Below are positions 6,401 to 45,103 of a DNA stretch of 64,000 bases, piece after piece; position 1 is the first letter of the stretch; every line of letters begins with the position of its first letter. Both the position numbers and the translations under genes were made by a program. Location: the NCBI GenBank assembly GCA_041656935.1, contig JBBACQ010000002.1, forward strand, positions 27,603 to 91,602, given 5' to 3'. A model generated the notes under the pieces. The model did not search any database, was not told the origin of the DNA, and saw only the letters and a list, made by a program, of their open reading frames with translations. Source of the stretch: Patescibacteria group bacterium. GTDB taxonomy: Bacteria; Patescibacteriota; Patescibacteriia; Patescibacteriales; UBA12465.

Positions 6401-7312
6401 GAAAAGTTTCAAACCAACCTGAAATGCGTAGAAGAAGAAAGGCAACACATTAATTTTTCTAAATCTGGTATTTCTTACGACTTTCACAAAGTCGAAAAAC
6501 CGGTTTCCAGAGATGACTGTTCTCCTAAAGTAGCAATTCTTCGTTCAGAGGGCAGTAATGGTGATCGTGAGATGACCAGCGCTTTCTATCTGGCTGGATT
6601 TGATCCTTATGATGTTCATTTATCTGATTTGCTCTCGGGCAAAACAGATCTAAGTGATTATCAAGGGATCGCTTTTGTGGGAGGTTTTAGTTATGCTGAT
6701 GTTCTGGATTCGGCTAAGGGTTGGGCTGGTATTATAAAGTTTAATGAACGTTTAAGTAGAATGTTTGCTGATTTTTATAATCGCCCTGATACTTTTTCTT
6801 TTGGTGTTTGTAATGGCTGTCAATTAGCAACTCTTTTGGGTTGGGTTCCCTTTGACGATATCATTGATTCTTATCAACCTCGTTTTATCAAAAATACTAG
6901 CGGGCGGTTTGAATCTCGTTGGTCACGGGTGGCTATTTTTAATAGCCCCTCTATAATGTTAAAGGGGATGGAACACCAAGTATTGGGAGTTTGGTCAGCT
7001 CATGGAGAGGGACGATTTTTTGCCGACAAAGAAGTTCTACAAGAAATTCTTGCTCAAAACTTGGCTCCAATCATGTATGTTGACTGGGAAGGTGCAATTA
7101 CTGAAGAATATCCCTTTAATCCCAATGGTTCAGCCCTGGGAATAGCTGGGATATGTGACCCAACAGGACGTCATTTAGCTATGATGCCTCATCCGGAAAG
7201 ATCTTTCTTGAACTGGCAATGGCCATACAAGAATGGTCTTCCAGAAAATGGAGTGTCTCCTTGGCTAACGATGTTTATCAACGCCAGAGAGTGGTGTGAG
7301 AGAAACAGATAA
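3491..7312 (+). CDS. purL: phosphoribosylformylglycinamidine (FGAM) synthase, single-chain large form
   Basis: About 1270 aa with FGAM synthetase domains and a C-terminal glutaminase (GVCNGCQ nucleophile region, HPER motif). ATG at 3491 is preceded by AAAGGAG; the track start at 3437 is a TTG. Confidence 0.9.
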   Translation: MINRYYRLLNPQLELCFNVEVTSPLSDNEELVLFWLLAETFQKEDFGKESMLKSGKILEIGPRLSFATPWNTNALSILKECGLNKVVRIEKSRRLLNPVSQSENLTDLYDQMTECIWDKIPESFLSIEEPKPVLQLPLLEKGIEVFSEIPDFKAMDDFDRQFYYDYFVGELNRNPTFVEIMDLNNANSEHSRHGYFRGKQIIDGKLMPETLMEIVKSTLKGKNEKGSLVAFKDNSSVIMAYDYIKTLIPQKPGKISNFVLKSLLYHLSFTAETHNFPSGIAPFPGAETGGGGRIRDGQAVGIGGLIIAGTAGYCVGNLGLPFCLWEKKGANPKNLASPLDILIGASNGASDYGNKFGEPLISGFVRTSALTVNNERREWLKPIMFTGGIGQIDRWHLEKMTPQEGMLIIQIGGPAYRIGFGGGSASSLMQGENKSDLDFNAVQRGDAEMEQKMNRVIRACVEMGKNNPIISLHDQGAGGPANVLKELVEKTGGRIDIRKIQVGDPTMSVLEIWVCEYQERLGLVIDPSDLKIFQKICKRERVNCEVLGEVTGDGYFIVEDSQAGALNPEPVRMDLAKVLGGMPQKTFSSETIVPELYPLIIPEGIVLGEILSRVLKLPSVGSKRFLTNKVDRSVTGLVAQQQCCGPFQLPVSDYAMVSQSHFPDERGKYSGAVTSIGEQPIKMLVDPSAGARMAVAEAFTNMMFAQICWPNTIKCSANWMGAPKLPGEGAKMYSAASAMRDLMLKLGMAVDGGKDSLSMATKVFNHDENKEELVKSPLQLVISAYAPTADITKKVSPDIKESGNHLVFIDLANGKKRLGGSALAQVFGQIGNDCPDVEDPELLVKTKEIVNILLENNLIVSGHDISDGGLIVSLLEMAFSGNSGFIIHLPEKKDEIFSRLFSEELGLIIEISERTFEIAKAFFSVEKIPFIPIGFTGPKDVFIFGGDSELVFSSHLQNLFSDWDTPSYELEKFQTNLKCVEEERQHINFSKSGISYDFHKVEKPVSRDDCSPKVAILRSEGSNGDREMTSAFYLAGFDPYDVHLSDLLSGKTDLSDYQGIAFVGGFSYADVLDSAKGWAGIIKFNERLSRMFADFYNRPDTFSFGVCNGCQLATLLGWVPFDDIIDSYQPRFIKNTSGRFESRWSRVAIFNSPSIMLKGMEHQVLGVWSAHGEGRFFADKEVLQEILAQNLAPIMYVDWEGAITEEYPFNPNGSALGIAGICDPTGRHLAMMPHPERSFLNWQWPYKNGLPENGVSPWLTMFINAREWCERNR

Positions 7313-7319
7313 CAACAAT

Positions 7320-7345
7320 AAACCCGATTACGATCGGGTTTTTTT
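7320..7345 (+). terminator. Rho-independent terminator of purL
   Basis: Stem ACCCGAT/ATCGGGT with TACG loop, followed by T7. Confidence 0.7.
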
Positions 7346-7399
7346 AATTGAGGGAATGATGCTTTTAATATTGGAGTTAATATTTGTTTTTAATAAAAA

Positions 7400-8011
7400 T
7401 TATTCAATAATTATTACCTCGCCATCTCGTAAAGTTTTGAAAGAAAAATTATTTTTTTTACAAAATTTTATTTCTTTATCTATATCCGCAGATTCAGGGT
7501 GATCTGATTTGTAATGAGGAAAAATTATATAATCTAAAATACCTAAACCATCCCAAATAACTTCTTTTAATTCTTCATAAGGAAAAATATCTGGTCTATC
7601 AACTTGTTGGAGAACCTTAAGAGTTGGGGCTAAAATGCAAATTCCAGCGCTATAACCACCATAAAAAAAATCATCTCTATTTATACTTTTAATAATATCA
7701 TCGAAGCCACTGAGTTTCATTGCTTGGCGTAAAACAAAGGTATTCCCTCCCCGAACCCAGACGCCATCAAGAAGATCAATTTTTTTCTTTAATTCTTCTT
7801 TTTTTCCAAAATAGTTTTTGAGATCAAGCATTTGAACATCAATTCCTAAATCAACTAGGTCTTTCAAATTTTTAAAATTGCTTTCTCCTCTTGCTTCTGA
7901 TTCAACGTAATCTAAAGCGTTTGGGATATATCCAATTTTCTTATTAAGAGTTAGTTCTTTTAGTTTATCAGTTTTTGGTCCGATTTTGTAGGAGGAGAGA
8001 TAAAATTTCAT
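7400..8011 (-). CDS. peptidase E-like (S51 family) protein
   Basis: 203 aa. ...VWVRGGNTFVLRQAMKLSGFDDII...GGYSAGICILAP... matches the S51 dipeptidase E layout. Confidence 0.7.
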   Translation of the reverse strand: MKFYLSSYKIGPKTDKLKELTLNKKIGYIPNALDYVESEARGESNFKNLKDLVDLGIDVQMLDLKNYFGKKEELKKKIDLLDGVWVRGGNTFVLRQAMKLSGFDDIIKSINRDDFFYGGYSAGICILAPTLKVLQQVDRPDIFPYEELKEVIWDGLGILDYIIFPHYKSDHPESADIDKEIKFCKKNNFSFKTLRDGEVIIIE

Positions 8012-8131
8012 ATTTAATTTTAAGTTTAATAATTTTAATAATAGAAATAGCTTAAATAACGTTTATCTATGTTACTTAAAGATTAGTTAAAGTTTAAAAT
8101 GTTTTTTTAAGATAAGGGCAAAAATGCATTT

Positions 8132-8234
8132 CATATAACGTTCGCTGATATCTGACGTTTTGCCACTTCCTTTAAAAATCAATTTAGTGTGGCAAAATGT
8201 GGCTTTAGCCCTTGCAGATATCAGCTGTTGTGTG
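8132..8234 (-). other. attC-like imperfect-palindrome site, copy 1
   Basis: CATATAAC-GTTC-GCTGATATCTG...CAGATATCAGC-T-GTTGTGTG with inner stem TTTTGCCAC/GTGGCAAAA. Lies directly 3' of the nucleotidyltransferase stop codon. The structured repeat is certain; function as a recombination site is inference. Confidence 0.6.
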
Positions 8235-8287
8235 TCCCGAAGGGTCGGAGCGAAGCGGAGAAGTTGGTTTCTCTGGCGTCGTGATTA

Positions 8288-9058
8288 TTAAGTAGGACTT
8301 TTGATTTTCCAGCCATCAATATTAAATCCTCCCATTTTTTCAAGAACATGATTTGTTGCTATTTTATATTCATTCATCATTTTTGACTTATCTTTTAGGT
8401 TGATGGCTGAGACAATCATTTTAACAAATTTTTCATCTGGGAAATTGCTTACAAGATACTTTTTCTTGTCTTTTTCGTTTACTAGAAAACGTCTTAATTT
8501 ATGAATAGGTATTGAATCAAATTGCAAAAATTTCGCATAAGTTTCAAATAAATCATTCAAACAATTATAGAAAACAAAAAAGAATTCTTCCGACTTTGAA
8601 TCAAAAACTTCTTCTAAATTATCACACATATCCCAAATGTGGTATTTTGCTATTTCAATTTGGATCTTATTTTGCTTCGGATTTTTCTTTTGCAAATACT
8701 TTTTGGAATATTTAACAAGTTCTTTTAATTCGCCTGTTTTATCAAAAAGTATTTTTCCAGTACAGAACATGTGAGCGTTTATCTTTCTTCTTGATTTCAG
8801 ATCTTCTTCCAAGTATTGATGATGTCTTTTTGTTGGATTAGCGAAATATTCGATCAAAATACCATCGATAATTTCATTACCTCTTTCTCTCCAGGAAGTT
8901 TTTGCATCTAAAAGGATATGAATATCAATATCTGAATGATTACTAGGATTTCCAGTGATATAGCTACCGCAAACAATAGCCCCAATTACTTCTTTTTTGT
9001 TTTCCCATTTTTTGAGAAATTTTTGTAGGGCAATTCCCCAGTTTTCTTGTTTTTTCAT
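8288..9058 (-). CDS. nucleotidyltransferase-domain protein (Pol-beta superfamily, KNTase/ANT-like)
   Basis: 256 aa with N-terminal motif GSYITGNPSNHSDIDIHILLD (GS-X-D-X-D) and a helical C-terminal domain. Confidence 0.75.
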   Translation of the reverse strand: MKKQENWGIALQKFLKKWENKKEVIGAIVCGSYITGNPSNHSDIDIHILLDAKTSWRERGNEIIDGILIEYFANPTKRHHQYLEEDLKSRRKINAHMFCTGKILFDKTGELKELVKYSKKYLQKKNPKQNKIQIEIAKYHIWDMCDNLEEVFDSKSEEFFFVFYNCLNDLFETYAKFLQFDSIPIHKLRRFLVNEKDKKKYLVSNFPDEKFVKMIVSAINLKDKSKMMNEYKIATNHVLEKMGGFNIDGWKIKSPT

Positions 9059-9100
9059 AAGTCCTGCTTTTAATAAGATAAAACGTTGTTTTCTATTCTA

Positions 9101-9141
9101 GCCAGAGAAACCAATTACACACAACTGTTTATTATACGAAC
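9101..9141 (-). repeat. 5' boundary of the nucleotidyltransferase module
   Basis: GCCAGAGAAACCAA (9101-9114) is the reverse complement of 8264-8277. CACACAAC (9118-9125) complements GTTGTGTG at 8227-8234. CTGTTTATTATACGAAC (9125-9141) matches 30824-30840 at 16/17 positions. Confidence 0.7.
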
Positions 9142-9238
9142 AATCTCTCCACATTACCCCCCAACCAACCATACCAACCTTACAACAATTCTACCACACC
9201 CCCACAAAAATCTCAACCCCAAAAACCCCTCCCCAATT
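9139..9238. other. 100-nt G-free C/A-rich tract (G-run-rich on the minus strand)
   Basis: No G on the + strand between G9138 and G9239. The minus strand carries GGGG, GGGG, GGGG, GGGGG and GGGGGG runs. Confidence 0.9.
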
Positions 9239-9291
9239 GCCATTTTCAGAAAAATAATATAAACTCTCAACATAAACCTTAACCTAATTTT

Positions 9292-23461: not shown

Positions 23462-25918
23462 ATGAATATATCATTAAATTGGCTAAAGGAGTTTGTTAGT
23501 TTATCAAATATTAGCTCCGAAGAAATAAAAGACCGACTAACGGCCCATACTGTTGAAGTAGAAAAAATTATAAAACAAAAAGAACAATATCAAAATATTG
23601 TAGTAGCTGAAATTTTAGAAATAAAAAAACATCCGCAAGCTGATAAATTACAATTAGTTCTAGTTGATGCTGGAGAAAAGGAAAATTTAAAGGTTGTTTG
23701 CGGAGCTTTTAACATTTCTTGCGGACAATTAGTCCCTTTGGCTAAAATTGGAGCAATCTTACCAAATGGTTTAGAAATAAAAAAGGCTGAAATTAGAGGA
23801 GAAGAGTCAAATGGAATGCTCTGTGCTGAAGATGAACTAGGACTAGGATCTAACCATGATGGGATAATGATTTTATCCTCCCAAGCCAAAAAGGGAGAAC
23901 TTTTAGCTGATTATCTAGAATTAAACGAAGTTGTCTTAGAAATAGACAATAAATCAATCTCTAATCGCCCTGATCTTTGGTCTCACTATGGAATTGCTCG
24001 AGAATTGGCCATCTTATTTAATAAAAAATTAGATGATTATTCAACCAAAGAAATTAAAATAAAAAAAGACAATAAAAAAGAGAAAACAAAACTAGAAGTA
24101 AAAATAGAAGTTAAAAATCTTTGTCAAAAATATTTAGCTCTAAAAATAGAAAATATAAAAATTGAAGATTCACCGAAATGGCTAAAAAACAGATTAACCT
24201 CTTTAGGAGTTAAACCAATAAATAATATTGTTGATATTACAAATTATATTATGTTTGAAACCGGACAACCACTTCATGCCTTTGATGGCGAAAATATTAA
24301 AAAAATAATAATTAAGAAAGCTACTAAGAACGAAAAAATCATGGGGCTAGATGAAGGAGAAAAAAAATTAGAAGAAGATGACTTGGTTATTAGTAGCGAC
24401 AAAGAAACCATTGCTATCGCTGGAGTTATTGGTGCTAAAAATAGTCAAATAAATAACACCACTTCAACTATTATTATAGAGTCGGCTAATTTTGATGCTG
24501 TTTCAGTTAGAAAAACAGCTCAAAGACTAAACACTAGAACTGATGCCGCGATGCGCTTTGAGAAAGGGCTAGATCCAAACTTATGTAAAATAGCTATTAA
24601 TAAAGCTGGGGAAATGATAAAAAAAATCTCTCCCTCGGCTAATTTTAATCATGAGATAATAGAAACCGGAGATTTTGTGGAAGAAAACAAGATCATAACT
24701 TTAGATTTAGATTGGGCCGATAAACTTATTGGTCAAAAAATTGATAGAAAGGAAATTAAAAAAATCCTAGAAAGCTTAGGACTAAAAATAGAAAAAAATA
24801 AAAACCTGAAAAAAAATGAAGACAAATCTTGGGCTGAAGAATGGGATATTAAAATTCCATCTTGGAGAACAAAAGACTTATCAATTAAAGAAGATCTTAT
24901 TGAAGAAATAATAAGAATCTACGGCTATGATAATATTAAATCAAGCTCCCCTAAGGGTGAAATAATCCCTCCCGAAAAAGATAAAGAATTGGAATTAATT
25001 AAAAAAATAAAAAAAATCTTAGCTTTAAGCTACAAAATGAACGAAGTTTATAATTATTCCTTTGTAAGCGAAGAACAATTATTAAAACTAAATTTAGATC
25101 CTAAAACATACCTTCAACTATTAAATCCTTTATCAACTCAACATACTCTCTTGAGACAAACCATGACCACTCATTTACTATCTAATGTTAAAACCAACCA
25201 AGCCAAATATAATAAAATAGCTTTATTTGAAATTGGTAATGTTTTCTTGAATATCAGTGGAGACTTAAATAAAGACGAAACTCTATTGAATAATTTACCT
25301 TATCAAGAGAAAAAAATAGGATTAATCCTAGCCGAAAATACAAACGAAAAATTTAAAAATTTAAAAAATATAATATTTAATGCCATCGAAGAAATTAGCG
25401 AAGGAGCAGAATTAAAATTTTTACCAACCGAATCAATAATAGATTGGGCCGACCAAAATGAAAAATGCTTATTAATGTTGAATGACAAAGAAATTGGATT
25501 TTTAGCTACTATCAGTAAAGAAGTTTTAAATAAAAACGGAATTAAAAAAGAGGTTTCAGCCCTAGAAATCAGTCTTAAGTCGTTATTATCAGCTCTATCT
25601 AATCTAGAAACCAAACAATATCAAGAAATCCCTAAATTTCCCCCAATCAATCGAGATCTAGCCTTTGTAATTGATGAAAAAATATTTTATAATGATATTA
25701 GACAAGAAATCAAAGATTTTAATCCTTTAATAAAAAGAGTTGATTTGTTTGATGTTTATTCGGGCAAAAATCTAGAAGCTAATAAAAAGAGTTTGGCCTT
25801 CCATGTAATTTATCAATCTGGAGAAAAAACTTTAACCAATGAAAGTGTCGATAAAATTGAAGCTGAATTAATAAAATTATTAGAAAGTAAATTTAATGCT
25901 CAAATTAGGAACTTTTAA
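23462..25918 (+). CDS. pheT: phenylalanine--tRNA ligase beta subunit
   Basis: 818 aa with N-terminal tRNA-binding domain, B3/4 and B5 domains, and a C-terminal anticodon-binding fold. Confidence 0.95.
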   Translation: MNISLNWLKEFVSLSNISSEEIKDRLTAHTVEVEKIIKQKEQYQNIVVAEILEIKKHPQADKLQLVLVDAGEKENLKVVCGAFNISCGQLVPLAKIGAILPNGLEIKKAEIRGEESNGMLCAEDELGLGSNHDGIMILSSQAKKGELLADYLELNEVVLEIDNKSISNRPDLWSHYGIARELAILFNKKLDDYSTKEIKIKKDNKKEKTKLEVKIEVKNLCQKYLALKIENIKIEDSPKWLKNRLTSLGVKPINNIVDITNYIMFETGQPLHAFDGENIKKIIIKKATKNEKIMGLDEGEKKLEEDDLVISSDKETIAIAGVIGAKNSQINNTTSTIIIESANFDAVSVRKTAQRLNTRTDAAMRFEKGLDPNLCKIAINKAGEMIKKISPSANFNHEIIETGDFVEENKIITLDLDWADKLIGQKIDRKEIKKILESLGLKIEKNKNLKKNEDKSWAEEWDIKIPSWRTKDLSIKEDLIEEIIRIYGYDNIKSSSPKGEIIPPEKDKELELIKKIKKILALSYKMNEVYNYSFVSEEQLLKLNLDPKTYLQLLNPLSTQHTLLRQTMTTHLLSNVKTNQAKYNKIALFEIGNVFLNISGDLNKDETLLNNLPYQEKKIGLILAENTNEKFKNLKNIIFNAIEEISEGAELKFLPTESIIDWADQNEKCLLMLNDKEIGFLATISKEVLNKNGIKKEVSALEISLKSLLSALSNLETKQYQEIPKFPPINRDLAFVIDEKIFYNDIRQEIKDFNPLIKRVDLFDVYSGKNLEANKKSLAFHVIYQSGEKTLTNESVDKIEAELIKLLESKFNAQIRNF

Positions 25919-27272: not shown

Positions 27273-27280
27273 AAAATAAT

Positions 27281-27311
27281 AAAAAATAGAGGTCTAAGGC
27301 CTCTATTTTTT
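27281..27311. terminator. bidirectional terminator
   Basis: AAAAAATAGAGG-TCTAAGG-CCTCTATTTTTT between convergent trpS and the 93-aa gene. Confidence 0.65.
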
Positions 27312-27339
27312 ATTTAAACGAAATTATTTTAATAATAAT

Positions 27340-27621
27340 TTAAGATCTTCTTTCTTCTTGATAGGCCTTATATCTCCTAACGAATTCATCAATATCGTCT
27401 TTGTGGATTTTAACATCACAATAATTTCCTGGGTTTCCTAGAATACGAAGGCCATCGCCCAAATTTGGACAATCACAACTCTCATCACCGAAAGCATAGG
27501 CAACACCATATTGACCTTGTTTTTTTAATATCTGTCTTGAGACATCTCCAAAATTAACAAAACCGTCTTTATCTGCCTCAAATGAAGGTTTTTGTTCAAA
27601 CGATGATTCTTTGGGTCCCAT
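27340..27621 (-). CDS. hypothetical Cys-containing small protein
   Basis: 93-aa ORF with ATG start; no recognised motif. Confidence 0.5.
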   Translation of the reverse strand: MGPKESSFEQKPSFEADKDGFVNFGDVSRQILKKQGQYGVAYAFGDESCDCPNLGDGLRILGNPGNYCDVKIHKDDIDEFVRRYKAYQEERRS

Positions 27622-27714
27622 AGTTTTTAAATTAAATTTAAATTATATAATAAGTATTTTTTATTTTTTTACAAACTTCTTTTTTATCTATGAGTTAAAA
27701 ACTATTAAATATTT

Positions 27715-27802
27715 CACATAACGTTCGTTGATATCTGACGTTCTCCGTAGCGATAGCAGAGGAGAATGTGGCGAAGCCCTTGCAGATATCAGCTGTTATG
27801 TG
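27715..27802 (-). other. attC-like imperfect-palindrome site, copy 2
   Basis: CACATAAC-GTTC-GTTGATATCTG...CAGATATCAGC-T-GTTATGTG with inner stem TTCTCC/GGAGAA. Lies directly 3' of the HD gene stop codon. Confidence 0.6.
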
Positions 27803-27838
27803 CCCCAAAGGGTCGGAGCGATAGCGGAGATGTAAATC

Positions 27839-28423
27839 TTAAACTCCTTTTATTTTTCGTTGGTACTCATCCCAATCGTTTTTCATCTGTTCAAGCTTGG
27901 GTTTACCTAAACGTCGGCTAATATCAAAATTCAACAAATCAAATTTACCAAGCTTCCGTTGAATTTCATCCGTAAGTCCGTTTTTAAAAACCCACTCGAT
28001 CCAGAGCATATACAGTTTTTTATCAAAATACAAAGCGACCGCGTCTGCATCTTTTACAATTTTCATTTCGGTTGAATCACTACTATATGAAATAATATCA
28101 CGAACATGTTTTAATTCATCAATGTCTAGACCAAGACTGTTCAAGAATTCTTGAGATACGGATAAGTTAAAACTTTCGTGGTTTTTATGGAGCGTTTCCG
28201 GATCAGCATGATGGGTCTTGCCAATATCGTGTAGTAATGCACCAATCGCGGCTACGGTTTTATTACACTCAACTTCTTCAGATATTTTCATCACCAGCTC
28301 TTGGACTGTAACGCTATGGTTGTACATAACCGACCAATGATTAAAACTAAAATGCGGGTTCTTTTGAAAAGAACGTTTTACAAATTCTTTTGTTTTTTCA
28401 ACTAAATCGTGTTTATATTCCAT
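27839..28423 (-). CDS. HD-domain phosphohydrolase
   Basis: 194 aa with metal-binding ...GALLHDIGK... HD motif. Confidence 0.75.
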   Translation of the reverse strand: MEYKHDLVEKTKEFVKRSFQKNPHFSFNHWSVMYNHSVTVQELVMKISEEVECNKTVAAIGALLHDIGKTHHADPETLHKNHESFNLSVSQEFLNSLGLDIDELKHVRDIISYSSDSTEMKIVKDADAVALYFDKKLYMLWIEWVFKNGLTDEIQRKLGKFDLLNFDISRRLGKPKLEQMKNDWDEYQRKIKGV

Positions 28424-28450
28424 AAAAATAAAAGGGGTTTAAGATTTATT

Positions 28451-28547
28451 GCACATAACGTTTGCGGATATGAGAAGTTGCGACCGTAGGGAGCAATTTG
28501 GGTGAGCCCCGAGCCGAGGGGCGAACCTCATATCCGCTGTTATACGC
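28451..28547 (-). other. attC-like imperfect-palindrome site, copy 3
   Basis: GCACATAAC-GTTT-GCGGATATGAG...CTCATATCCGC-T-GTTATACGC. The 11-bp stem differs from copies 1 and 2 at three positions, all compensated on the other arm. Confidence 0.6.
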
Positions 28548-28601
28548 CCCGACGACTGAAAGGAGGAGAGCGCAGCGTGGCACGGAGCGAAGCGGAGTGA
28601 G

Positions 28602-28694
28602 TTCAAAAAATATTTTTCGTTCTCATTAATTATGATAGGCTTTCCTCAATTCTTATAAATTTGATTTTTTCCGTTTTGAAAAATGAAAGAGGGG
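28602..28694. repeat. left arm of a long imperfect inverted repeat flanking the rSAM-methyltransferase pair
   Basis: Collinear identical blocks versus the reverse complement of 30727-30813: 17 nt (28602-28618), 13 nt (28632-28644), 14 nt (28657-28670) and 7 nt (28688-28694). Confidence 0.8.
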
Positions 28695-28728
28695 TTAGGG
28701 GTGAATTTCATTTTTCAAATTCATTAAT

Positions 28729-29838
28729 TTAAGGATGTAAATGTTCTACGCAACCTTTATTTCTTGGAATGTGTTTTGCTAAATATTTTGTAGCTTCACA
28801 AAACTCTTTAACTATCCCTAAAAAATTTCCAGTTGAATAATAAGCCAAGCCCGCACAACCTCCACCACAATTTGATCTTATTTCGCAATTTTTGCATTCA
28901 TCAATAAATTTTGTATTTCTTTGCCTTATTCTTGTCATCTTTTCAGGATAATATATAATTTCATTTTTTTCTTTATCATATTTTCCAAAGATAAATTCTG
29001 AAAGTTGCGTTTTTCCTGAATATGCTAAATCACATCCAGAAACATAACCATCAGCAGTAAGTTGAGGCATTGGGATACAAGAACGACACGCGTAATTACA
29101 AGGTTCATCAAAATTTACTGTGAAAAAATTACCATAGTGCATTCCAATTTTTTCAGCATGTTTGTATGCTTTAACAAAATGTTCAGCAAATTCCTTTAAG
29201 TTTATAGGTGTAATTTGTTTTACTCCTGCTTTACCTTCTTGTTTGACGCTTTCAAAAACAGGTTCGGCATAAACCCATTTTATCCCTATTGAATTAAAAT
29301 AATCCAATATTTCAATTTGCTTATTTATGTCTTGGGGCAAGATTGTTGCTCTTGCACCAACAAAAACTCCTTCTTTTTGTAAAAATTTTACATTTCTGAC
29401 GATGGTGTCAGAAGTTTCTTGACCTCCTCTCGCAGGTCTGTTTCTATTTTGAATATAACTTGGTCCATCAATCGAAATCCATACTTCAGCAACATTTTTT
29501 GCAATCCATTTTGCCGTATCTTCTGAAAAAAATCCATTTGTTTGCAATTCTACAAACAAATCTTTTCCTTTAATTTTTTTAGCATATTCTGTAATTGCTT
29601 TTACTAAATCCATTCTTGTGGTTGGTTCTCCAACTCCATAAAATCTAATCATATTATTGCCAACACCAAAAAAGTCTGTTTTATCCCTGAAAAAATCATC
29701 CATACCTTTTTTGGCAAAATCCAAATCAATTGCTTTTTCCTCTCCAACATGTCTTGTGTCATTAACACAATAAACGCAGTTTAGATTGCATTTAGATGTT
29801 ATGAAAAAAGTTATTGTTCTTTTTCTTTCGTGAGCCAT
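28729..29838 (-). CDS. radical SAM enzyme with C-terminal SPASM-type Cys cluster
   Basis: 369 aa with CNLNCVYC (CxxxCxxC), GVGEPT and QTNG motifs, and C-terminal CKNCEIRSNCGGGCAG. Confidence 0.8.
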   Translation of the reverse strand: MAHERKRTITFFITSKCNLNCVYCVNDTRHVGEEKAIDLDFAKKGMDDFFRDKTDFFGVGNNMIRFYGVGEPTTRMDLVKAITEYAKKIKGKDLFVELQTNGFFSEDTAKWIAKNVAEVWISIDGPSYIQNRNRPARGGQETSDTIVRNVKFLQKEGVFVGARATILPQDINKQIEILDYFNSIGIKWVYAEPVFESVKQEGKAGVKQITPINLKEFAEHFVKAYKHAEKIGMHYGNFFTVNFDEPCNYACRSCIPMPQLTADGYVSGCDLAYSGKTQLSEFIFGKYDKEKNEIIYYPEKMTRIRQRNTKFIDECKNCEIRSNCGGGCAGLAYYSTGNFLGIVKEFCEATKYLAKHIPRNKGCVEHLHP

Positions 29839-29839
29839 A

Positions 29840-30649
29840 TTATTTCCTCGCAGTTAAAAAATAATAACCGACATTAGTATAATTTATTTTTTTATTATTT
29901 CCACGCATTAATTCAGGTTTTATATTTTTGAAATTAGAATTTTTTAATTGTTCTAAGATTATTGGTAGGCAAACTTTTAATTCTTCAATTCTCAAAATAT
30001 CCATAAAAGCTGTTTTGATTTGATCAATCACGTCTGCCTCTTGAGGTTTTGGCATTGATAAAATTTGTGCAGAAGCATATTTTAAAATATTTTCAATAAA
30101 TTGTACTTTATTTTTTGGGTTAAAATTTTTATCAAATTCATAATCTGGAATAAATACTTCAGCAACAATTAAAGTACCTCCAACTTTTAGATTATTATAG
30201 ATATTTTTTATTGCTTTTGGTTTGTCAAAAAGATGATGATAAGTAGCTGTTAAAATTACTATATCAAAATAATTTTCTTTCTGAAAAATTTCAGCTGTCC
30301 CATTTAGGATTTTCGCCTTACCTTTTGTTTCTTTGTTTGTCATATCTCTAAAAACTTTTTCAGGTTCAACAACGACATACTCTTGAATATTTTTATTATT
30401 GATAATTTTGCCAGCTAAAATACCTGGTCCAGAGCCATATTCCAAAATTTTGACAGGTCTTTTTTGTTGGTTGATAATTTTTTCAATTCTATCAAACCAC
30501 TCTAAATATAATGGATATTGTTTAACTTGTTCTAAGTATTGTTTTCTTATGGTTGTTGGGTCTGTCACTGAATATCCTTTTTGCAAAGATTCCCCTAATT
30601 CATTTATTGATTTCCAGATTTGGTTTGAATTTTTTTTAATCATATTCAT
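29840..30649 (-). CDS. class I SAM-dependent methyltransferase
   Basis: 269 aa with motif I ILEYGSGPGILA. Its stop codon lies 1 nt from the rSAM start, so the two are probably co-transcribed. Confidence 0.75.
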   Translation of the reverse strand: MNMIKKNSNQIWKSINELGESLQKGYSVTDPTTIRKQYLEQVKQYPLYLEWFDRIEKIINQQKRPVKILEYGSGPGILAGKIINNKNIQEYVVVEPEKVFRDMTNKETKGKAKILNGTAEIFQKENYFDIVILTATYHHLFDKPKAIKNIYNNLKVGGTLIVAEVFIPDYEFDKNFNPKNKVQFIENILKYASAQILSMPKPQEADVIDQIKTAFMDILRIEELKVCLPIILEQLKNSNFKNIKPELMRGNNKKINYTNVGYYFLTARK

Positions 30650-30726
30650 TAAGTATAGTTAAGAATTTAAAAAGTCTTCTAATATAAATCGTTTTCGGAA
30701 CGAAGTGGAGAAAACACCATATTATC

Positions 30727-30813
30727 CCCCTCTATAAATAAAGAAAAAATCAAATTTATTCCCCTTTGAAAGCCTATCATTTCTTATTCTCCGTTAGAAA
30801 AATATTTTTTGAA
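30727..30813. repeat. right arm of the long imperfect inverted repeat
   Basis: Blocks at 30797-30813, 30768-30780, 30744-30757 and 30727-30733 are reverse complements of the left-arm blocks. Confidence 0.8.
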
Positions 30814-30815
30814 TT

Positions 30816-30840
30816 GCATATAACTGGTTATTATACGAAC
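30816..30840 (-). repeat. 5' boundary of the rSAM-methyltransferase module
   Basis: GCATATAAC (30816-30824) complements GTTATACGC at 28539-28547 at 8/9 positions. CTGGTTATTATACGAAC (30824-30840) matches 9125-9141 at 16/17. Confidence 0.7.
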
Positions 30841-30949
30841 TTATTACTTAATAATTCCAAAAATCTTCAAATTATGCGAATAAAAAAATTATTTTTTATT
30901 AAAACCATTATTATTATAACAAGAAATATAACCAAAATCAATTTAAACC

Positions 30950-33160
30950 CTACCCACACTCCTTGTTCGAGCACTTCGGTCCATTTTTATCTTCTATCAT
31001 CAAAGCTCCACATTTATCACATTTCTCCCCTGTCGGTCTAGCAAAATAAGCATTTTTACACTTCGGATAAGCACTACAGGCGTAAAAAACACCCCGACGA
31101 GAAAACTTTTTTACTATTTTTCCCTTGCCACAAAGTGGGCAATCAACCTCTTTTTCAGTCTCGCCATTTTTACTAATATTTTTAAGATTTTTACATTTTG
31201 GATAAGCACTACATCCCAAAAACGGACCAAACTTTCCCACTCTAACTATCATGTCAGCTCCACATTTATCACACTTATCTTTCTTATGTTTTTCTTTCAA
31301 CTCTATCATCTCCGGACTATCTTCTCTTTTCTCCGGTTCACCTTCTTTTTTCAAAGATTTAATATTACGACACTCCGGATAAGCACTACAAGCCAAAAAT
31401 TTTCCGTAACGACCAGTTTTAATAATCATTTTAGCTCCACATTTATCACAAATCTCGTCAGTCTCTTCTTCCGGAACAATATCTTTCCTATCTAACTCTT
31501 CATATTTCTTGGCTAAGTTAGCACTAAAGGGATCCCAAAAACTCTTTATTACTGGAGGCCAATCTTTTTTACCAAGTGAAATCTGATCTAAATCATTCTC
31601 CATATCAGCCGTAAACTTATAATCGATAATTTCTGGAAAATGTTCTACTAACAGATCAACTACTACGAAAGCAATGTCCGTCGGAAATAATTTTTTCTTA
31701 TCATCACGATTAACATAATTTCTATCAATAATAGTTGAAATGGTTGGAGCGTAGGTAGAGGGTCGACCAATACCATTTTTTTCCATTTCTTTAACCAAGC
31801 CAGCATCAGAATATCTAGCCGGTGGCTGAGTAAAATGCTGATCTTTATCTAACTTCACTAAATCCAAGCTATCTTTTGTTTTTAATTCTGGTAATTCATT
31901 TTCGCTAACCACCTCCGGATATATTTCTAAATATCCCTTAAATTTAACTGTTTGACCATTGGCCCTAAACAAAAACTCATTTTTTTGTCCAGCTAAAATA
32001 TCAACCGACACCGTGTCTAAAATAGCCCCGTTCATCTGAGAGGCTAATGCTCTTTGCCAAATTAATTGATAAAGTTTAAATTGATTTTTATCTAATTTGT
32101 TTAAAAATTTTTCTGGCTCCGAAGAAGCTAAAGTTGGTCGAATAGCCTCATGAGCTTCTTGAGCATTTTTACTCTTACCCTTAAAAACTCGGCCACCAGA
32201 CAACAAATACTTTTCACCTAATTTATTTTTAATATAGTTACCAGCTTCATCTCTAAATTTCTGAGCTAAGTTAATTGAATCAGTTCTCATATAAGTAATA
32301 TGCCCCATTTCATATAACTTTTGAGCGACCATCATAGTTTGTTTAGCACTAAAACCTAAACGACGATTAGCTGTTTGTTGCAAAGAGGAAGTAATAAAAG
32401 GTGGCAATGGACTTTTAGTAGTTTCTTTACTTTCAATTTTATCTACCGTCCAATTACTTTTAACCAAAGAATCTAAAATTTCCTGAGCATCATCTTCGGT
32501 TTTAAAGTAAAATTTATCAATTGATTTATTATCAATTTTTAACAATCTAGCTGAAAAATTATTACTATTCTTAGCTAAAATAGCATTTATATCCCAGTAT
32601 TCCTGAGCCACAAAGGCCTTTATCTCTCTTTCCCTCTCTACTATCAATCGGACAGCTACACTTTGAACACGACCAGCTGATAAGCCCTTAGCTACCTTTT
32701 TCCATAAAAAGGGGGACAATTTATAACCAACCAGCCTATCTAAAATTCGGCGAGCCTGCTGAGCGTCAACCATTTTTTGATCAATTTTCCTAGGATTATT
32801 TAAAGCTGATAAAATAGCCTCTTTGGTAATCTCATGAAAGGCAATTCTCTGGGAATTACTATCATTTAGAGACAAAGCTTCAGACAAATGCCAGGCAATG
32901 GCCTCTCCTTCGCGATCTTCATCAGACGCTAAAATAACATTGGTAGCGCTTTTAGCTAACTTTTTTAAATCAGTTACTCTTTTTTTAGCCGTACTGGAAA
33001 CAACATATTTAGGCGCAAAATTATCTTCCAAATCAACTCCTAACTCACTTTTAGGCAAATCTCGAATATGACCAAAAGATGATTCCACTTTATACTCACT
33101 ACCTAAAAACTTAGCGATGGTCTTGGCCTTAGTAGGAGATTCCACTATTATTAAATTCAT
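30950..33160 (-). CDS. topA: DNA topoisomerase I
   Basis: 736 aa with Toprim N-terminus LIIVESPTKAKTI, active-site region ITYMRTDS, and four C-terminal C4 zinc ribbons. Confidence 0.95.
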   Translation of the reverse strand: MNLIIVESPTKAKTIAKFLGSEYKVESSFGHIRDLPKSELGVDLEDNFAPKYVVSSTAKKRVTDLKKLAKSATNVILASDEDREGEAIAWHLSEALSLNDSNSQRIAFHEITKEAILSALNNPRKIDQKMVDAQQARRILDRLVGYKLSPFLWKKVAKGLSAGRVQSVAVRLIVEREREIKAFVAQEYWDINAILAKNSNNFSARLLKIDNKSIDKFYFKTEDDAQEILDSLVKSNWTVDKIESKETTKSPLPPFITSSLQQTANRRLGFSAKQTMMVAQKLYEMGHITYMRTDSINLAQKFRDEAGNYIKNKLGEKYLLSGGRVFKGKSKNAQEAHEAIRPTLASSEPEKFLNKLDKNQFKLYQLIWQRALASQMNGAILDTVSVDILAGQKNEFLFRANGQTVKFKGYLEIYPEVVSENELPELKTKDSLDLVKLDKDQHFTQPPARYSDAGLVKEMEKNGIGRPSTYAPTISTIIDRNYVNRDDKKKLFPTDIAFVVVDLLVEHFPEIIDYKFTADMENDLDQISLGKKDWPPVIKSFWDPFSANLAKKYEELDRKDIVPEEETDEICDKCGAKMIIKTGRYGKFLACSAYPECRNIKSLKKEGEPEKREDSPEMIELKEKHKKDKCDKCGADMIVRVGKFGPFLGCSAYPKCKNLKNISKNGETEKEVDCPLCGKGKIVKKFSRRGVFYACSAYPKCKNAYFARPTGEKCDKCGALMIEDKNGPKCSNKECG

Positions 33161-42787: not shown

Positions 42788-45103
42788 TTAGCGACTTTCC
42801 TTGTAATTGAAGACTGGACCAACCGAAAAAGCAGGTTTTTCTCCCTTATTTGATATTAAGACCATTAATTTAGGTTTACTAATATCATAGTTCAAAGTTT
42901 TCTTGTTAAATCCTTCTATTTTTAAGATTTTGTTTTCAGTTTGTTCTAATTTCATCTCTAAACTAAATAAAGAAATAAATTTATAATCGTCTTTACTTAA
43001 ATTTTCCGAACTTAATTCCTTCATCATTATTTCTTTAACTCTGGCTAAATTATTTTTCAAATCTTCTAAATTAACTAAAACCGAATGAAGCTCATCAGTC
43101 ACCTTTAATAATTTAAACATCTCTAAAATCATATTAACATTAGCTATCTGCTCGTTTATTAAATCTAAATTCGGTTCTATATAATTATTTTCGACAAAAA
43201 GAGCTTCGTCCGGAACAAAAGACTGAGGTTGATTTTTTTGATAAATTTTTAATTTGTCCATTGGTAACTGCAGATCTACCCAAGACCCAACAGCTGTATA
43301 TAATTCCTGCCGTCGCCAATCTGAATTTTTAGTAAAAAAGGGTCTTTCATTTTTATCGCTTTTTAAATATTCTTTTATGATATTTAAAGTTTTCCAGAAA
43401 TTATTATAATGCCAAATATTAGGAATTTGATTTATCTGGTCTTTTAAAAAATTGATTTGACTTTGATAATTTTTATAATTAGAATTTTGGAAATAATAAT
43501 CATTCCCAAGTAAGCTTTTTTCATTAACTAAGGCTACAATATCTAGAGAAAATCCATTACACCTAATATTGCTCGCCTGATTTTTTATACTACAAGAAGT
43601 TATGTTATTTTTGGTTAAAGACGCCCCCTGATATTCTAAAACTTGCGGGTAAGATAATTGATTAAAGATATAATCATTTGGCCAATAAAAATCAGTTAAC
43701 ATTTTTACTCCTAAAGATGGCCTTTTTTCTAAATTATTTTTATCAAAACCACCCTCAATTCCCAAAAAACTATATTCTTTAATTTTTTCTATAAATTTAG
43801 CTAAATTATTTATAGCCTCGGGATTATTATCACCAAAAACCACTTCAATCTCGTAACCTTCACCAAATAAATTTAATAAGGCATCACGATAATGAACATA
43901 AGTCAGGTCTCCCCGAAGTCCTTTAAAAAAAGCCAGGGTTTTATAAATTCTAGCCCATTTGTTTTTTAGTTGGTAACTGTCGAAAATATCTTTGGCGATA
44001 AAAGTTGAGGTTATTATATTAATTCTCCAATCATCAAAATCCAAAGAGCATTGCGGACAGTCCGCACTTTGATAATATAAGGGAAAATTAGATGATAGCC
44101 ATTTGGTAGTAAGATAAAAATTATTTAATTTAGCATTGCTCTTATATTCACTAGGGATTAGAAAATCTTTGTAATTTCTGACATACAATAAAACTGGAGA
44201 TTTGGCAGAAGCCTGTGCCTTTCTAATTAAATCAACTTCTTTTTTAACATCAACCTCTAAATATTCGGGCAAACTAAAAGAATAACTTTCAGCTTCAAAA
44301 GATGTAAATAAAGATTTATTACTTATATCATTTTTTTTATTTATCTGGCTATCTACTGGTTTTAATAATTCTAAAGAAGTAGCAAAATAGGCAGCAGCTA
44401 ATCTCTGAGCCTCTAAAATTCTGTCGTTCACATTACCTTTCGCTTCTAAACTGCCCTCATATCTAATTTTAGCTTTTTCGTATAAAAACCTGTTTATCTC
44501 CCACAAATTAGCATAAAAAAGATTTTCCTCAACATCTTTAAATACTTTTTTTAGATTATACTGGTAATAATAAATTAAGAAATCAGAAGTTATCAGAGCG
44601 GGAATTTGTTTTTTGTATAATTCATCGTAAATATCGTAGAAATTATCTGAATCTAAAGAATTTTCCAGAACAGCAAAACCATTATTATTTAAGGAATCAA
44701 TATGGCTATCCAAATTTAATTTACGAGAAATATCATAATAATTAGAGATCTCGGTTTTTACATTAAAAGGTAAGCTGGGGCTAGAAATATTTGCTTGGAA
44801 ATTGTCTTCTATTTTTTCATAAAAATCTAAAAAAGAAATATATTCGATTAAAGCATTGGTTTCATCACCTTGAAAATTAATGCCAATTTTTTTATCGCTA
44901 GTCGGCAAACCTCCAATTAAGCGCGAAGCATCAATCAAATTTTCAATATCACTCTTAACTTCAGTTGATTTATTCTCCACCACTGGGACATCAACCACGA
45001 CTGGGGCGGGTTTTTTCTTTTTAAAAATAAAAAATAAGGGCAAGCCGACAACCAAAATTAAAAAGACAAAAATAACCAAACCCTTCTTTAAATCCTCATT
45101 CAT
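42788..45103 (-). CDS. large N-terminally anchored hypothetical protein (possibly DUF3160-like)
   Basis: 771 aa with one N-terminal TM helix. The family assignment is from memory only and is unverified. Confidence 0.55.
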   Translation of the reverse strand: MNEDLKKGLVIFVFLILVVGLPLFFIFKKKKPAPVVVDVPVVENKSTEVKSDIENLIDASRLIGGLPTSDKKIGINFQGDETNALIEYISFLDFYEKIEDNFQANISSPSLPFNVKTEISNYYDISRKLNLDSHIDSLNNNGFAVLENSLDSDNFYDIYDELYKKQIPALITSDFLIYYYQYNLKKVFKDVEENLFYANLWEINRFLYEKAKIRYEGSLEAKGNVNDRILEAQRLAAAYFATSLELLKPVDSQINKKNDISNKSLFTSFEAESYSFSLPEYLEVDVKKEVDLIRKAQASAKSPVLLYVRNYKDFLIPSEYKSNAKLNNFYLTTKWLSSNFPLYYQSADCPQCSLDFDDWRINIITSTFIAKDIFDSYQLKNKWARIYKTLAFFKGLRGDLTYVHYRDALLNLFGEGYEIEVVFGDNNPEAINNLAKFIEKIKEYSFLGIEGGFDKNNLEKRPSLGVKMLTDFYWPNDYIFNQLSYPQVLEYQGASLTKNNITSCSIKNQASNIRCNGFSLDIVALVNEKSLLGNDYYFQNSNYKNYQSQINFLKDQINQIPNIWHYNNFWKTLNIIKEYLKSDKNERPFFTKNSDWRRQELYTAVGSWVDLQLPMDKLKIYQKNQPQSFVPDEALFVENNYIEPNLDLINEQIANVNMILEMFKLLKVTDELHSVLVNLEDLKNNLARVKEIMMKELSSENLSKDDYKFISLFSLEMKLEQTENKILKIEGFNKKTLNYDISKPKLMVLISNKGEKPAFSVGPVFNYKESR

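Follow-up and report, generated by a model that had tools for sequence, protein, structure and literature searches.

In the window, the 64-kb (64,000-nt) stretch of Patescibacteria DNA that we analysed, two loci of the core chromosome have split flanks and are probably orphan attI-type sites at which an integron-like system docks its gene cassettes. What sets this system apart from an integron is its enzyme and the fact that its docking sites are several and dispersed. Insertion at the window sites is genuinely site-specific and is the work of an integron variant.

Split core sites and their cassettes

The right flank of each locus is formed by a 17-mer, CTGKTTATTATACGAAC, which occurs in the window only in these two copies (CTGTTTATTATACGAAC at 9125–9141 and CTGGTTATTATACGAAC at 30824–30840, matching at 16 of 17 positions) and beyond which the flanks of the two loci diverge immediately. 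A search of the window at up to three mismatches returned two other matches, both weak (0.38 expected by chance), and a degenerate attI pattern returned the same two sites and a partial match within an ORF at 44477–44494. The left end of each locus is ATTTCAYATAA, and further to the left there are two shared blocks, TTTATCTATG (8062–8071 and 27683–27692) and AGTTAAA (8085–8091 and 27693–27699); the first-pass annotation had these blocks and their coordinates right at both loci. By itself, ATTTCAYATAAC is not rare (28 matches at two mismatches versus 29 expected); it represents the consensus R box of this family of cassettes, and related loci have it at many of their cassette junctions. In 431 kb of sequence (the window plus related loci), TTTATCTATG is otherwise found only in same-strain contigs, so the left flanks have more than the R box in common. 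Specifically, the shared blocks sit in the leader of the terminal gene of locus 1, and the small-ORF gene that terminates locus 2 is a true cassette with a homologous leader in two other loci (L069 and L070). Of the left blocks that had been assigned to the target, the R-box part stands, while TTTATCTATG and AGTTAAA are not part of the target and belong to the leader of a cassette-type gene.

In gene sense, the rejoined core reads GTTCGTATAAT-AAMCAG-TTATRTGAAAT (~28 bp), with two inverted arms and a 6-nt centre, the 11-6-11 geometry of Xer/dif sites. This joined 28-mer is as the first-pass annotation gave it, but the hairpin that was to make it a landing pad is thermodynamically marginal, at −1.1 and −3.2 kcal/mol for the gene-sense strand (z = −1.1 and −2.1) and 0 kcal/mol for the other strand. 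The split flanks are better read as the two inverted, putatively recombinase-binding arms of a double-stranded attI/dif-like core. Near the core of locus 2, ATTATGCGAA resembles the TTGTATATTATNCGAA repeats located 35–50 nt from the core in other loci and may, with low confidence, be an accessory repeat of the attI region. The right-hand neighbour of locus 1 is YchF (start at 9292), and the core site of locus 2 sits downstream of topA (30950–33160). There is no recombinase gene anywhere in the 64-kb window, hence none adjoins either core site.

The inserted modules are minus-strand gene cassettes of the integron type, comprising one or more ORFs and an attC-like imperfect palindrome, with junctions at AA|C (Table 1). 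Cassette 1 is 94.3% identical over all 986 bp to positions 709–1695 of L010, an array of a Peribacteria MAG, where other cassettes lie on either side and the homology ends at AA|C at both ends. These exact boundaries support the earlier proposal that one conserved target was interrupted at the same position by site-specific insertion. The last gene of each array has no attC: the locus 1 unit ends in a bidirectional terminator (7320–7341), and the locus 2 gene is followed by a terminator at 27278–27314. Such attC-less last genes are not predicted by the simple cassette model.

Table 1. Features of the two loci, in window positions; a bar marks the crossover point and CM R1 is the covariance model of attC.
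Feature	Positions	Strand	Details
Locus 1 terminal gene and leader	7400–8127	−	peptidase S51 (7400–8011); leader 8012–8127
Locus 1 R-arm half, distal array end	8128–8138	−	gene sense |TTATATGAAAT
attC of cassette 1	8128–8238	+	CM R1 82.8 bits, E = 3e-18; bottom-strand orientation; order R box (8131–8139), GTTC bulge, L box, three-way variable part, L', R'
Cassette 1	8139–9124	−	nucleotidyltransferase ORF (8288–9058) and attC; boundaries AA|C
One-sided GC-rich bulge of cassette 1, R' to outer stem	8236–8263	+	CCCGAAGGGTCGGAGCGAAGCGGAGAAG
Outer-stem arms of cassette 1	8264–8276 with 9102–9114		pairing upon circularisation
Locus 1 attI-type core site, L arm and central region	9125–9141	−	gene sense GTTCGTATAATAAACAG|
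Locus 2 terminal cassette-like gene and leader	27340–27710	−	93-aa ORF (27340–27621)
Locus 2 R-arm half, distal array end	27711–27721	−	gene sense |TTATGTGAAAT
attC of cassette 2a	27711–27806	+	CM R1 82.9 bits, E = 3e-18
Cassette 2a	27722–28458	−	HD-domain ORF (27839–28423) and attC; outer arms 27833–27852 and 28430–28449
attC of cassette 2b	28448–28550	+	CM R1 91 bits, E = 2e-20; followed by long GC-rich bulge (28548–28600)
Cassette 2b	28459–30823	−	methyltransferase (29840–30649), radical-SAM protein (28729–29838) and attC; outer arms 28602–28618 and 28632–28644 versus 30797–30813 and 30768–30780
Conserved cassette-leader motif with hairpin	30684–30760	−	common to cassettes in L007, L072, L062 and L070; no match in Rfam
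Locus 2 attI-type core site, L arm and central region	30824–30840	−	gene sense GTTCGTATAATAACCAG|
Possible accessory repeat of attI region	30871–30880	−	ATTATGCGAA; BLAST to attI regions of L047 and L035

When circularised, each of the three window cassettes folds at its junction into a long hairpin. With a covariance model derived from 17 attC sites, the window yields exactly three attCs (E ≤ 3e-18), and related loci yield arrays of three to seven. In particular, all 11 pairs of the L box covary (98.9% of cells paired), AAC and GTT are invariant in 17/17 sites, and the R' consensus GTTRYRY is one position away from the canonical GTTRRRY. An outer stem is found in 39/46 cassettes. No base is bulged out of the L stem of the folded attC, the asymmetry residing instead in the spacer (GTTC versus T) and in the large one-sided bulge.

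Recombinase-linked sites and cassette turnover

The rejoined sequence predicted by the first-pass annotation, ATTTCAYATAACTGGTTATTATACGAAC, is contiguous in five related loci (L047, L052, L059, L071 and L072), in four of which it lies ~100 nt upstream of a divergent gene for a ~270-aa tyrosine recombinase. The same 17-mer as in the window adjoins recombinase genes in L037, L047, L052, L071 and L072. More broadly, the 17-mer or a close variant is positioned 70–140 nt upstream of a divergent recombinase gene, with the cassette array opposite, in at least 10 related loci (L007, L037, L047, L052/L046/L027, L064, L071, L072, L073, L075/L076 and L077), several of which also have accessory direct repeats. 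In integrons, attI adjoins intI and is divergent from the cassette array; a corresponding arrangement is seen in at least 10 related loci and, putatively, on another contig of the window's own MAG, and the two window loci have the site without the recombinase gene. No provably empty site was found, the contiguous 28-mers of L047 and L072 retaining cassettes on their left.

Further interrupted copies, which the earlier annotation had anticipated, adjoin many different cassettes in ~25 metagenome contigs, and a cassette-type R box almost always lies directly beside the 17-mer. At least 10 contexts elsewhere in metagenomes are orphan, having the site and no adjacent recombinase gene. The right flanks of orphan sites L043/L036 and L062 are identical at 94/94 positions and carry different cassettes, as do the identical right flanks of L025 and L048. 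Cassettes also vary at identical flanks of recombinase-linked sites (L027, L046 and L052; L075 versus L076), and the same cassette is found beside different flanks (L020 versus L043). This turnover at fixed flanks indicates that the orphan sites are active.

The recombinases of the array-linked loci (~270 aa) score best against TIGR02249, the integron integrase family, with 217–222 bits in two stretches, under the cut-off of 265. The XerA model of NCBIfam gives 213.6–225.4 bits against a cut-off of 220, which one copy attains, and the best solved relative is Pyrococcus XerA. A phmmer alignment to VchIntIA (2a3v) pairs query residues 3–178 with 4–182 and 196–269 with 243–316, so that ~43 residues are missing relative to VchIntIA 183–242 and the IntI-specific I2 insertion is absent. 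The alignment of nine array-linked recombinases spans 273 columns with no insertion, and the catalytic residues R, K, HxxR, H and Y are invariant in 9/9 copies, pointing to an intact enzyme. No I2-containing IntI was seen beside any array examined. The family is very large in CPR bacteria, with 66–80% identity across CPR classes; the CPR Xer-related recombinases were grouped as 'Cand' by Smyshlyaev 2021 (PMC8138268). One of the four recombinases next to the contiguous 28-mer, P0023 (MFA5643976.1), has an NCBI accession adjacent to that of the small ORF of the window (MFA5644130.1), and both derive from one Logan sample; on this basis, P0023 appears to be encoded on another contig of the MAG to which the window belongs. 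The enzyme for the window sites is most likely such a ~270-aa Xer/IntI-like recombinase, which would act in trans, although the genome may also encode a second, canonical IntI outside the window.

Proposed mechanism and alternative readings

By analogy with attC × attI recombination, we propose the following reaction scheme, including its single-strand mechanism and choice of strand. Cassettes, each comprising promoterless ORFs followed by an attC-like imperfect palindrome, would be excised as circles, and one attC strand would fold into a long hairpin that mimics the core, consisting of an R box, a spacer that is unpaired and asymmetric, an L box and a variable three-way tip. At AA|C (G|TT in gene sense), the hairpin and the double-stranded site would swap a single strand through the action of the tyrosine recombinase, which is probably encoded elsewhere in the genome and would serve both orphan sites in trans; replication would then resolve the junction. 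Every insertion would split the site, leaving the L arm to the right of the array and shifting the original R arm to the far left end. Cassette excision never mobilises the L arm in this scheme, which does not account for a 17–28-bp site at several unrelated positions of the chromosome. The I2 insertion is considered necessary for integron integrases to recombine folded attC (PMC4792948), and the action of an I2-less recombinase on folded attC is proposed here by the same analogy.

An unlikely alternative is that the loci are true or ectopic dif sites and the modules are IMEX-like elements (compare CTX phage) integrated by a housekeeping CPR Xer dimer resolvase. The rejoined site does resemble E. 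coli dif, GGTGCGCATAA-TGTATA-TTATGTTAAAT (PMC3025954), at 10/11 positions of the XerD arm and, with a one-base shift, at 8/11 of the XerC arm; the recombinase is I2-less, closest among solved structures to Pyrococcus XerA and in one copy at the XerA cut-off, and its huge family with high identity across CPR classes is as expected of a housekeeping gene. However, one genome has three sites or more, including two in direct orientation separated by 21.7 kb. GC skew is monotonic across the window, and neither the window sites nor the recombinase-linked ones of L072 and L073 coincide with a switch, indicating that these sites are not at the terminus. Furthermore, ordered arrays of single-gene cassettes with their own hairpin sites and a divergent recombinase gene have the layout of an integron, unlike known IMEXs. 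The dif and integron readings are not exclusive, in that the same enzyme might also resolve dimers. It is very unlikely that the loci are an ordinary CALIN and SALIN, in which a canonical IntI put classical cassettes into attG-like sites and the likeness of the flanks reflects target preference. Two attCs at locus 2 and one at locus 1, neither locus having an integrase nearby, agree with the formal CALIN/SALIN definitions (10.1101/2022.09.11.507474), and insertion of attC-bearing cassettes outside attI does occur in E. coli; but these definitions are descriptive and leave the conserved attI half unexplained. In particular, attG sites have only GWT in common, whereas the sites here share 17 nt (16/17) and an 11-nt R arm, the same 17-mer is the site beside the recombinase gene in many genomes, and the arrays examined are without an adjacent I2-containing IntI.

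That a site and its leader were duplicated once as a segment, giving rise to both loci without independent targeting, is highly improbable: the left flanks do share TTTATCTATG and AGTTAAA beyond the R box, but homology with the small-ORF cassette leader explains these blocks, the cassettes of the two loci are completely different, the right flanks part directly after the 17-mer, and other genomes have the same 17-mer in over 10 contexts that are unrelated. The first-pass annotation had itself raised a generic promoter or UTR motif lying upstream of many genes and unrelated to insertion, a reading that is now barely credible. The 17-mer includes TATAAT, so that GTTCGTATAAT contains a perfect −10 hexamer pointing to the cassettes, and promoter-like sites face both arrays (9216→9188 and 30941→30913), yet such sites are no more numerous than in shuffled sequences, the 17-mer has only two copies in 64 kb, each against a cassette, and metagenome copies nearly always abut a cassette-type R box. 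Under the preferred reading of an attI-type docking site, the −10 box is compatible with a role like that of a cassette promoter (Pc).

It may be, although we put this forward tentatively, that Patescibacteria, and perhaps DPANN and other archaea, have a very large unrecognised class of integron-like platforms, in which an I2-less Xer-type recombinase serves several dif-like attI sites scattered in the core chromosome, one beside the recombinase gene and the others orphan, with extended attC hairpins. If so, the class would represent an extant intermediate stage between Xer/dif recombination and classical integrons, and would account for cassette clusters without a recognisable IntI in these lineages. 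Current integron finders, which key on the I2 domain, would call all these loci integrase-less clusters. Arrays with clear cassette turnover beside an I2-less recombinase offer a natural system for directly testing whether integrons originated from Xer-like enzymes, and several conserved docking sites per genome among housekeeping genes would mean distributed expression sites in place of one platform per integrase. To our knowledge, few other ways of acquiring genes are known for Patescibacteria, which are tiny symbionts with reduced genomes. A non-exhaustive search of the literature found no paper on integrons of Patescibacteria.

Comparison with known systems

The system is reminiscent of sedentary chromosomal integrons, such as that of Vibrio cholerae with VchIntIA, in its co-oriented arrays of mostly single-gene cassettes, in cassette ends with an R''/L''-L'/R' imperfect palindrome and a crossover at AA|C (G|TT), in the recombinase gene divergent from the array with attI within ~100 nt (related loci), in an attI with L and R boxes and accessory direct repeats, and in the mutual similarity of the attCs of one genome. 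Unlike in those integrons, whose integrase carries I2 around patch III and whose folded attC bottom strand has extrahelical bases that set the choice of strand, the recombinase is without I2 and under the TIGR02249 cut-off, the attC L stem has no extrahelical bases, the hairpin continues past the R box as a long outer stem, frequently bearing a conserved GC-rich bulge on one side, and the attI core is conserved across classes and present in several copies per genome without an adjacent integrase gene.

With Xer/dif and IMEXs such as CTX phage, the system shares a 28-bp 11-6-11 site with dif-like arms, an I2-less Xer-like recombinase and, as we infer here, a folded single-stranded hairpin that mimics a double-stranded site, exchanges one strand and is resolved by replication. 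dif is a single 28-bp site per replicon at the replication terminus, where GC skew switches, and its two ~11-bp inverted arms surround a centre of 6–8 bp and are bound by XerC/D or by a single Xer; here a chromosome has several sites, and none coincides with a skew switch. An IMEX is one element, whereas here there are ordered multi-cassette arrays with a site for each cassette. The pdif modules of Acinetobacter plasmids are likewise small gene modules associated with Xer-type sites, but they are bounded by paired double-stranded XerC/XerD sites in alternating orientation, whereas each module here has one hairpin-forming palindrome and one crossover triplet.

Archaeal integrons and CALINs (Ghaly et al. 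2022, PMC9668308) also occur in uncultured lineages, mostly as integrase-less attC clusters, and the presence of the attC family described here in Nanoarchaeota and Methanosarcinales MAGs fits cross-domain cassette pools. Unlike the recombinase here, the archaeal IntIs of that study have the additional IntI domain, and several conserved attI sites are not described there. Insertion into attG sites, giving SALINs (Loot et al., 10.1101/2022.09.11.507474), likewise places chromosomal cassettes away from intI with a double-stranded genomic partner described as dif-like in geometry; unlike attG, with its GWT only and no attI-like L box, the 17–28-nt site here is conserved and identical to the recombinase-linked attI.

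Cassettes and their attC hairpins

The two loci are best read as sites of integron-like cassette capture at attI-type sites. Both lie in core chromosome of an AT-rich bacterium (aminoacyl-tRNA synthetases, ATP synthase, TopA, DprA, FtsZ, YchF), locus 1 between peptidase S51 and ychF and locus 2 between a 93-aa ORF and the topA 3′ end. All elements listed in the first-pass annotation were recovered where it had placed them. The right-hand 17-mer, CTGKTTATTATACGAAC, has only two copies in the window, with two weak additional matches at up to three mismatches (0.38 expected), and ATTTCAYATAA stands on the left-hand side of both loci. A third candidate site (44477-44494, minus strand) lies within a DUF3160 ORF and lacks an R box, and is therefore taken as a chance match.

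Each inserted module comprises one or two minus-strand ORFs followed by an imperfect palindrome of ~90-110 nt, and has the plus-strand junction sequence ATTnCAYAYAAC. In gene sense all junctions read G|TTRYRTG, the crossover triplet of integron attC/attI sites, in agreement with the G|TT crossover proposed earlier. When the cassettes were cut at AA|C and circularised in silico, each of the three junctions folded into one long hairpin. From the outside inwards, the hairpin consists of a perfectly complementary outer stem particular to each cassette, a 9-10-bp R box, an asymmetric spacer (GTTC opposite T), an 11-12-bp L box and a branched variable tip.

When species-representative genomes were scanned with the 3′ portion of the palindrome, hairpins of this architecture turned up in a range of MAGs (Patescibacteria, Peribacteria, Nanoarchaeota, Methanosarcinales and others); two hits, L009 and L015 (handles L001-L077 denote related loci or contigs), seem to be chance matches or a different repeat. 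AAC and GTT are invariant in 17 well-aligned attC sites, and the L box shows compensatory changes in 11 of 11 pairs, with 98.9% of cells paired; the sites were chosen partly by pairing, which biases the latter figure but not the covariation. A first rule-based hairpin finder missed attC 2b and gave false matches (e.g. window 24037-24217), and a covariance model built from the 17 sites was used instead. The model gives exactly three matches in the window and co-oriented arrays of 3-7 sites each in related loci. The outer stem extends beyond the R box in 39 of 46 cassettes in the loci (median perfect run 14 nt, versus 7 in non-cognate controls), and the ORF lies between its two arms.

Coordinates of cassettes, sites and associated motifs
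Feature	Coordinates	Strand	Content or remark
Cassette 1	window 8139-9124	-	nucleotidyltransferase ORF
Cassette 2a	window 27722-28458	-	HD protein ORF
Cassette 2b	window 28459-30823	-	methyltransferase and radical-SAM protein ORFs
17-mer	window 9125-9141, 30824-30840		right-hand half-site
ATTTCAYATAA	window 8128-8138, 27711-27721		left-hand side
Outer-stem arms, cassette 1	8264-8276 / 9102-9114
Outer-stem arms, cassette 2a	27833-27852 / 28430-28449
Outer-stem arms, cassette 2b	28602-28644 / 30768-30813
GC-rich one-sided bulge	window 8236-8263, 27804-27832, 28548-28600; also L004-L017		CCCGAAGGGTCGGAGCGAAGCGGAG
Cassette-leader motif	window 30684-30760; L007 6520-6600 and 1066-1204; L072 7750-7830; L062 158-229; L070 333-404
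93-aa gene	window 27340-27621; L066 7001-7267; L069 1391-1672
L064 sites	4192-4210 and 1170-1190		variant attI and distal canonical 17-mer
L064 split attC halves	3575-3530 and 2850-2820
L-arm motif direct repeats	L047 1796-1810; L058 1229-1237; L014 1915-1933; L075 4375-4395; L077 6930-6945; window 30871-30880 (possible copy)		TTGTATATTATNCGAA

The insertion point is defined by a relative of cassette 1 in L010, a Peribacteria MAG array, which is 94.3% identical across the full 986 bp (L010 709-1695) and is flanked by different cassettes on both sides. The homology begins at C and stops at AA of the AAC triplets; the limits of cassette 1 are thus the same AA|C in both genomes, confirming that the interruption point does not vary.

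Several further motifs accompany the cassettes. The GC-rich bulge adjoins R′ in a subset of attCs from bacterial and archaeal MAGs, and GATGTA takes its place in others. A conserved cassette-leader motif of ~70 nt (…AAATTTGATTTTTT…AAAAGGGGRAATAAGGTGTTTTCTCC-loop-GAAAACGATTTAT) forms a hairpin that covaries in L072 and has no Rfam match. At gathering thresholds Rfam reports tRNAs alone in the window, and over locus 2 it gives nothing at E ≤ 1. Promoter-like sites point at both arrays, in counts not above shuffles. Directly right of the locus 1 site, a C/A-rich, nearly G-free tract (9142-9260) places G runs on the cassette-sense strand, and a promoter-like site (9216->9188) faces the array. In L072, a Falkowbacteria contig, a 3.1-kb first cassette beside the recombinase-linked site (4860-7886) encodes a trypsin-like protease in addition to a DNA methyltransferase and a restriction enzyme of ApaLI type.

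On the left, both loci have the TTTATCTATG and AGTTAAA blocks, and TTTATCTATG has no further copy in 431 kb of window and related sequence. The first-pass annotation had listed these blocks among the shared flanks. The 93-aa ORF is a true cassette with attCs on either side in L069/L070, and another relative has it in an array next to the recombinase. The leader of the ORF in L069 (TTGTGTGAAATAAAAATAATTTAAAATTTTTTTAACTATAAATAT) shows homology with the left flank in the window. The blocks are shared as claimed, but TTTATCTATG and AGTTAAA are thus part of the leader of a terminal cassette-like gene rather than target sequence. The terminal genes of locus 2 (93-aa ORF) and locus 1 (peptidase S51) both lack an attC and end at a terminator, an arrangement for which the simple model does not account. 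The 93-aa gene occurs in three forms, ordinary chromosomal (L066), true cassette between two attCs (L069/L070) and, in the window, attC-less terminal beside an array, which may bear on cassette birth or fixation.

attI-type sites and their putative recombinase

GCGTATAAC|AAGTCATATACGAAC comes after a series of seven attCs in the Patescibacteria MAG L007, and a divergent tyrosine recombinase gene starts 70 nt beyond it. A metagenome scan with AACTGNTTATTATACGAAC returned 48 contigs, ~25 of them genuine, in which the invariant 17-mer is directly adjoined by a cassette-type R box of variable sequence; twelve matches share one recurrent, unrelated context (AAATTAACTGTTTATTATACGAACAGTATATCGTG), and a number of others, in which N = A or C, seem to be chance matches. 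Right of the 17-mer, the sites fall into two classes. Recombinase-linked sites adjoin a divergent gene for a 269-273-aa recombinase, found by the metagenome scan (L037, L047, L052/L046/L027) or via protein look-ups (L064, L071, L072, L073, L075/76, L077), while orphan sites adjoin a housekeeping gene and no recombinase (RecJ, PRPP synthetase, nucleoside phosphorylase, BipA and others). The exact 28-mer predicted by the first-pass annotation is contiguous in L047, L052, L059, L071 and L072. L047 is not an empty site, having an attC half and an ORF on the left; L059, where an ORF occurs together with a partial 5′ half of an attC that a direct repeat bounds, is therefore probably occupied; L052 offers only 24 nt on the left.

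Unrelated cassettes occur to the left of right flanks that are identical over 94 to ~300 nt. L043/L036 versus L062 show this for an orphan site; L027, L046 and L052, as well as L075 versus L076 (with the same recombinase protein), show it for linked sites. For L025 versus L048 the common right flank is limited to the first ~50 nt (104/222 ungapped overall). One cassette is found at two different right flanks (L020 versus L043). Because unrelated cassettes occupy identical flanks and one cassette occupies two, the docking sites are in use.

L064 has a variant attI by its recombinase (AACTGGTTTTTATGCAAAC), the canonical 17-mer at the distal end of its array, and split attC halves. At several loci the L-arm motif recurs as direct repeats at a distance of 35-50 nt from the core, towards the recombinase, much as the accessory DR sites do in attI1.

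No tyrosine recombinase was found among 30 window ORFs scanned, including all of integrase-like length (280-420 aa). L071 and contigs of the window's strain come from the same sequencing run, and the L071 recombinase (MFA5643976.1) and the 93-aa ORF of the window (MFA5644130.1) are 154 accession numbers apart; we therefore infer that the window's genome holds a recombinase-linked copy on another contig in addition to the two orphan copies. Exact-protein look-ups gave no record for window YchF and TopA, and for S51 and the 93-aa ORF gave same-strain contigs only, broken inside attC repeats; one source lists the locus tag prefix WC928 for 'MAG: Patescibacteria group bacterium'. Independent same-strain assemblies break in or beside attC/attI repeats (position 1 of L001, L002, L071 and L074), so that cassette loci of this lineage should be under-represented in MAGs.

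The linked recombinases score highest against TIGR02249 (integron integrase), in two stretches and below the cut-off; their scores for the archaeal XerA model are about the same. Nine array-linked recombinases align without indels, with the catalytic R, K, HxxR, H and Y invariant. Segment 183-242 of VchIntIA, which includes the IntI-specific insertion I2 (PMC4792948), the 'additional domain' of PMC9668308, is replaced by 17 residues in the linked recombinase. Judged on its defining feature, the enzyme thus falls outside the classical integron integrases. At E < 1e-30 the family runs to more than 5,000 clusters. Among the best-scoring 120 members listed, almost all have a length of 269-273 aa, with 66-80% identity across Falkow-, Portnoy-, Moran- and Gracilibacteria. 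The family probably corresponds to the Xer-related recombinases that Smyshlyaev et al. (PMC8138268) term 'Cand'.

Likeness to dif

The rejoined site, GTTCGTATAAT-AAMCAG-TTATRTGAAAT, has an 11-6-11 geometry and matches E. coli dif, whose sequence was checked in the literature, at 10/11 positions of the XerD arm. A role as the dimer-resolution site is unlikely, because one genome has at least three copies (the third inferred), of which two form direct repeats at a spacing of 21.7 kb, and because GC skew shows no switch at either window site or at the linked sites in L072 and L073; the reading of the linked site as a dif at the terminus was rejected for want of a skew switch in these two contigs. 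The inverted repeat behind the proposed hairpin landing pad is present, but the hairpin is only marginally stable on folding. The repeat is best read as a pair of putative binding arms in a double-stranded site.

Proposed mechanism and comparison with known systems

In the proposed cassette capture, AA|C would be the point of recombination between the folded attC strand and the double-stranded attI-type site. An I2-less Xer/IntI-like recombinase would catalyse the reaction and would act in trans on orphan sites; enzyme and substrate are linked by association. The genome, known from MAG data, may also encode a canonical IntI elsewhere. The literature searched, of incomplete coverage, contains no description of such a system. 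In attG insertion the sites share a GWT motif only, unlike the conserved site here. The present system differs from classical integrons in its I2-less enzyme, in an L stem free of extrahelical bases, in long outer stems, often with a conserved GC-rich one-sided bulge, and in several conserved attI copies per genome.
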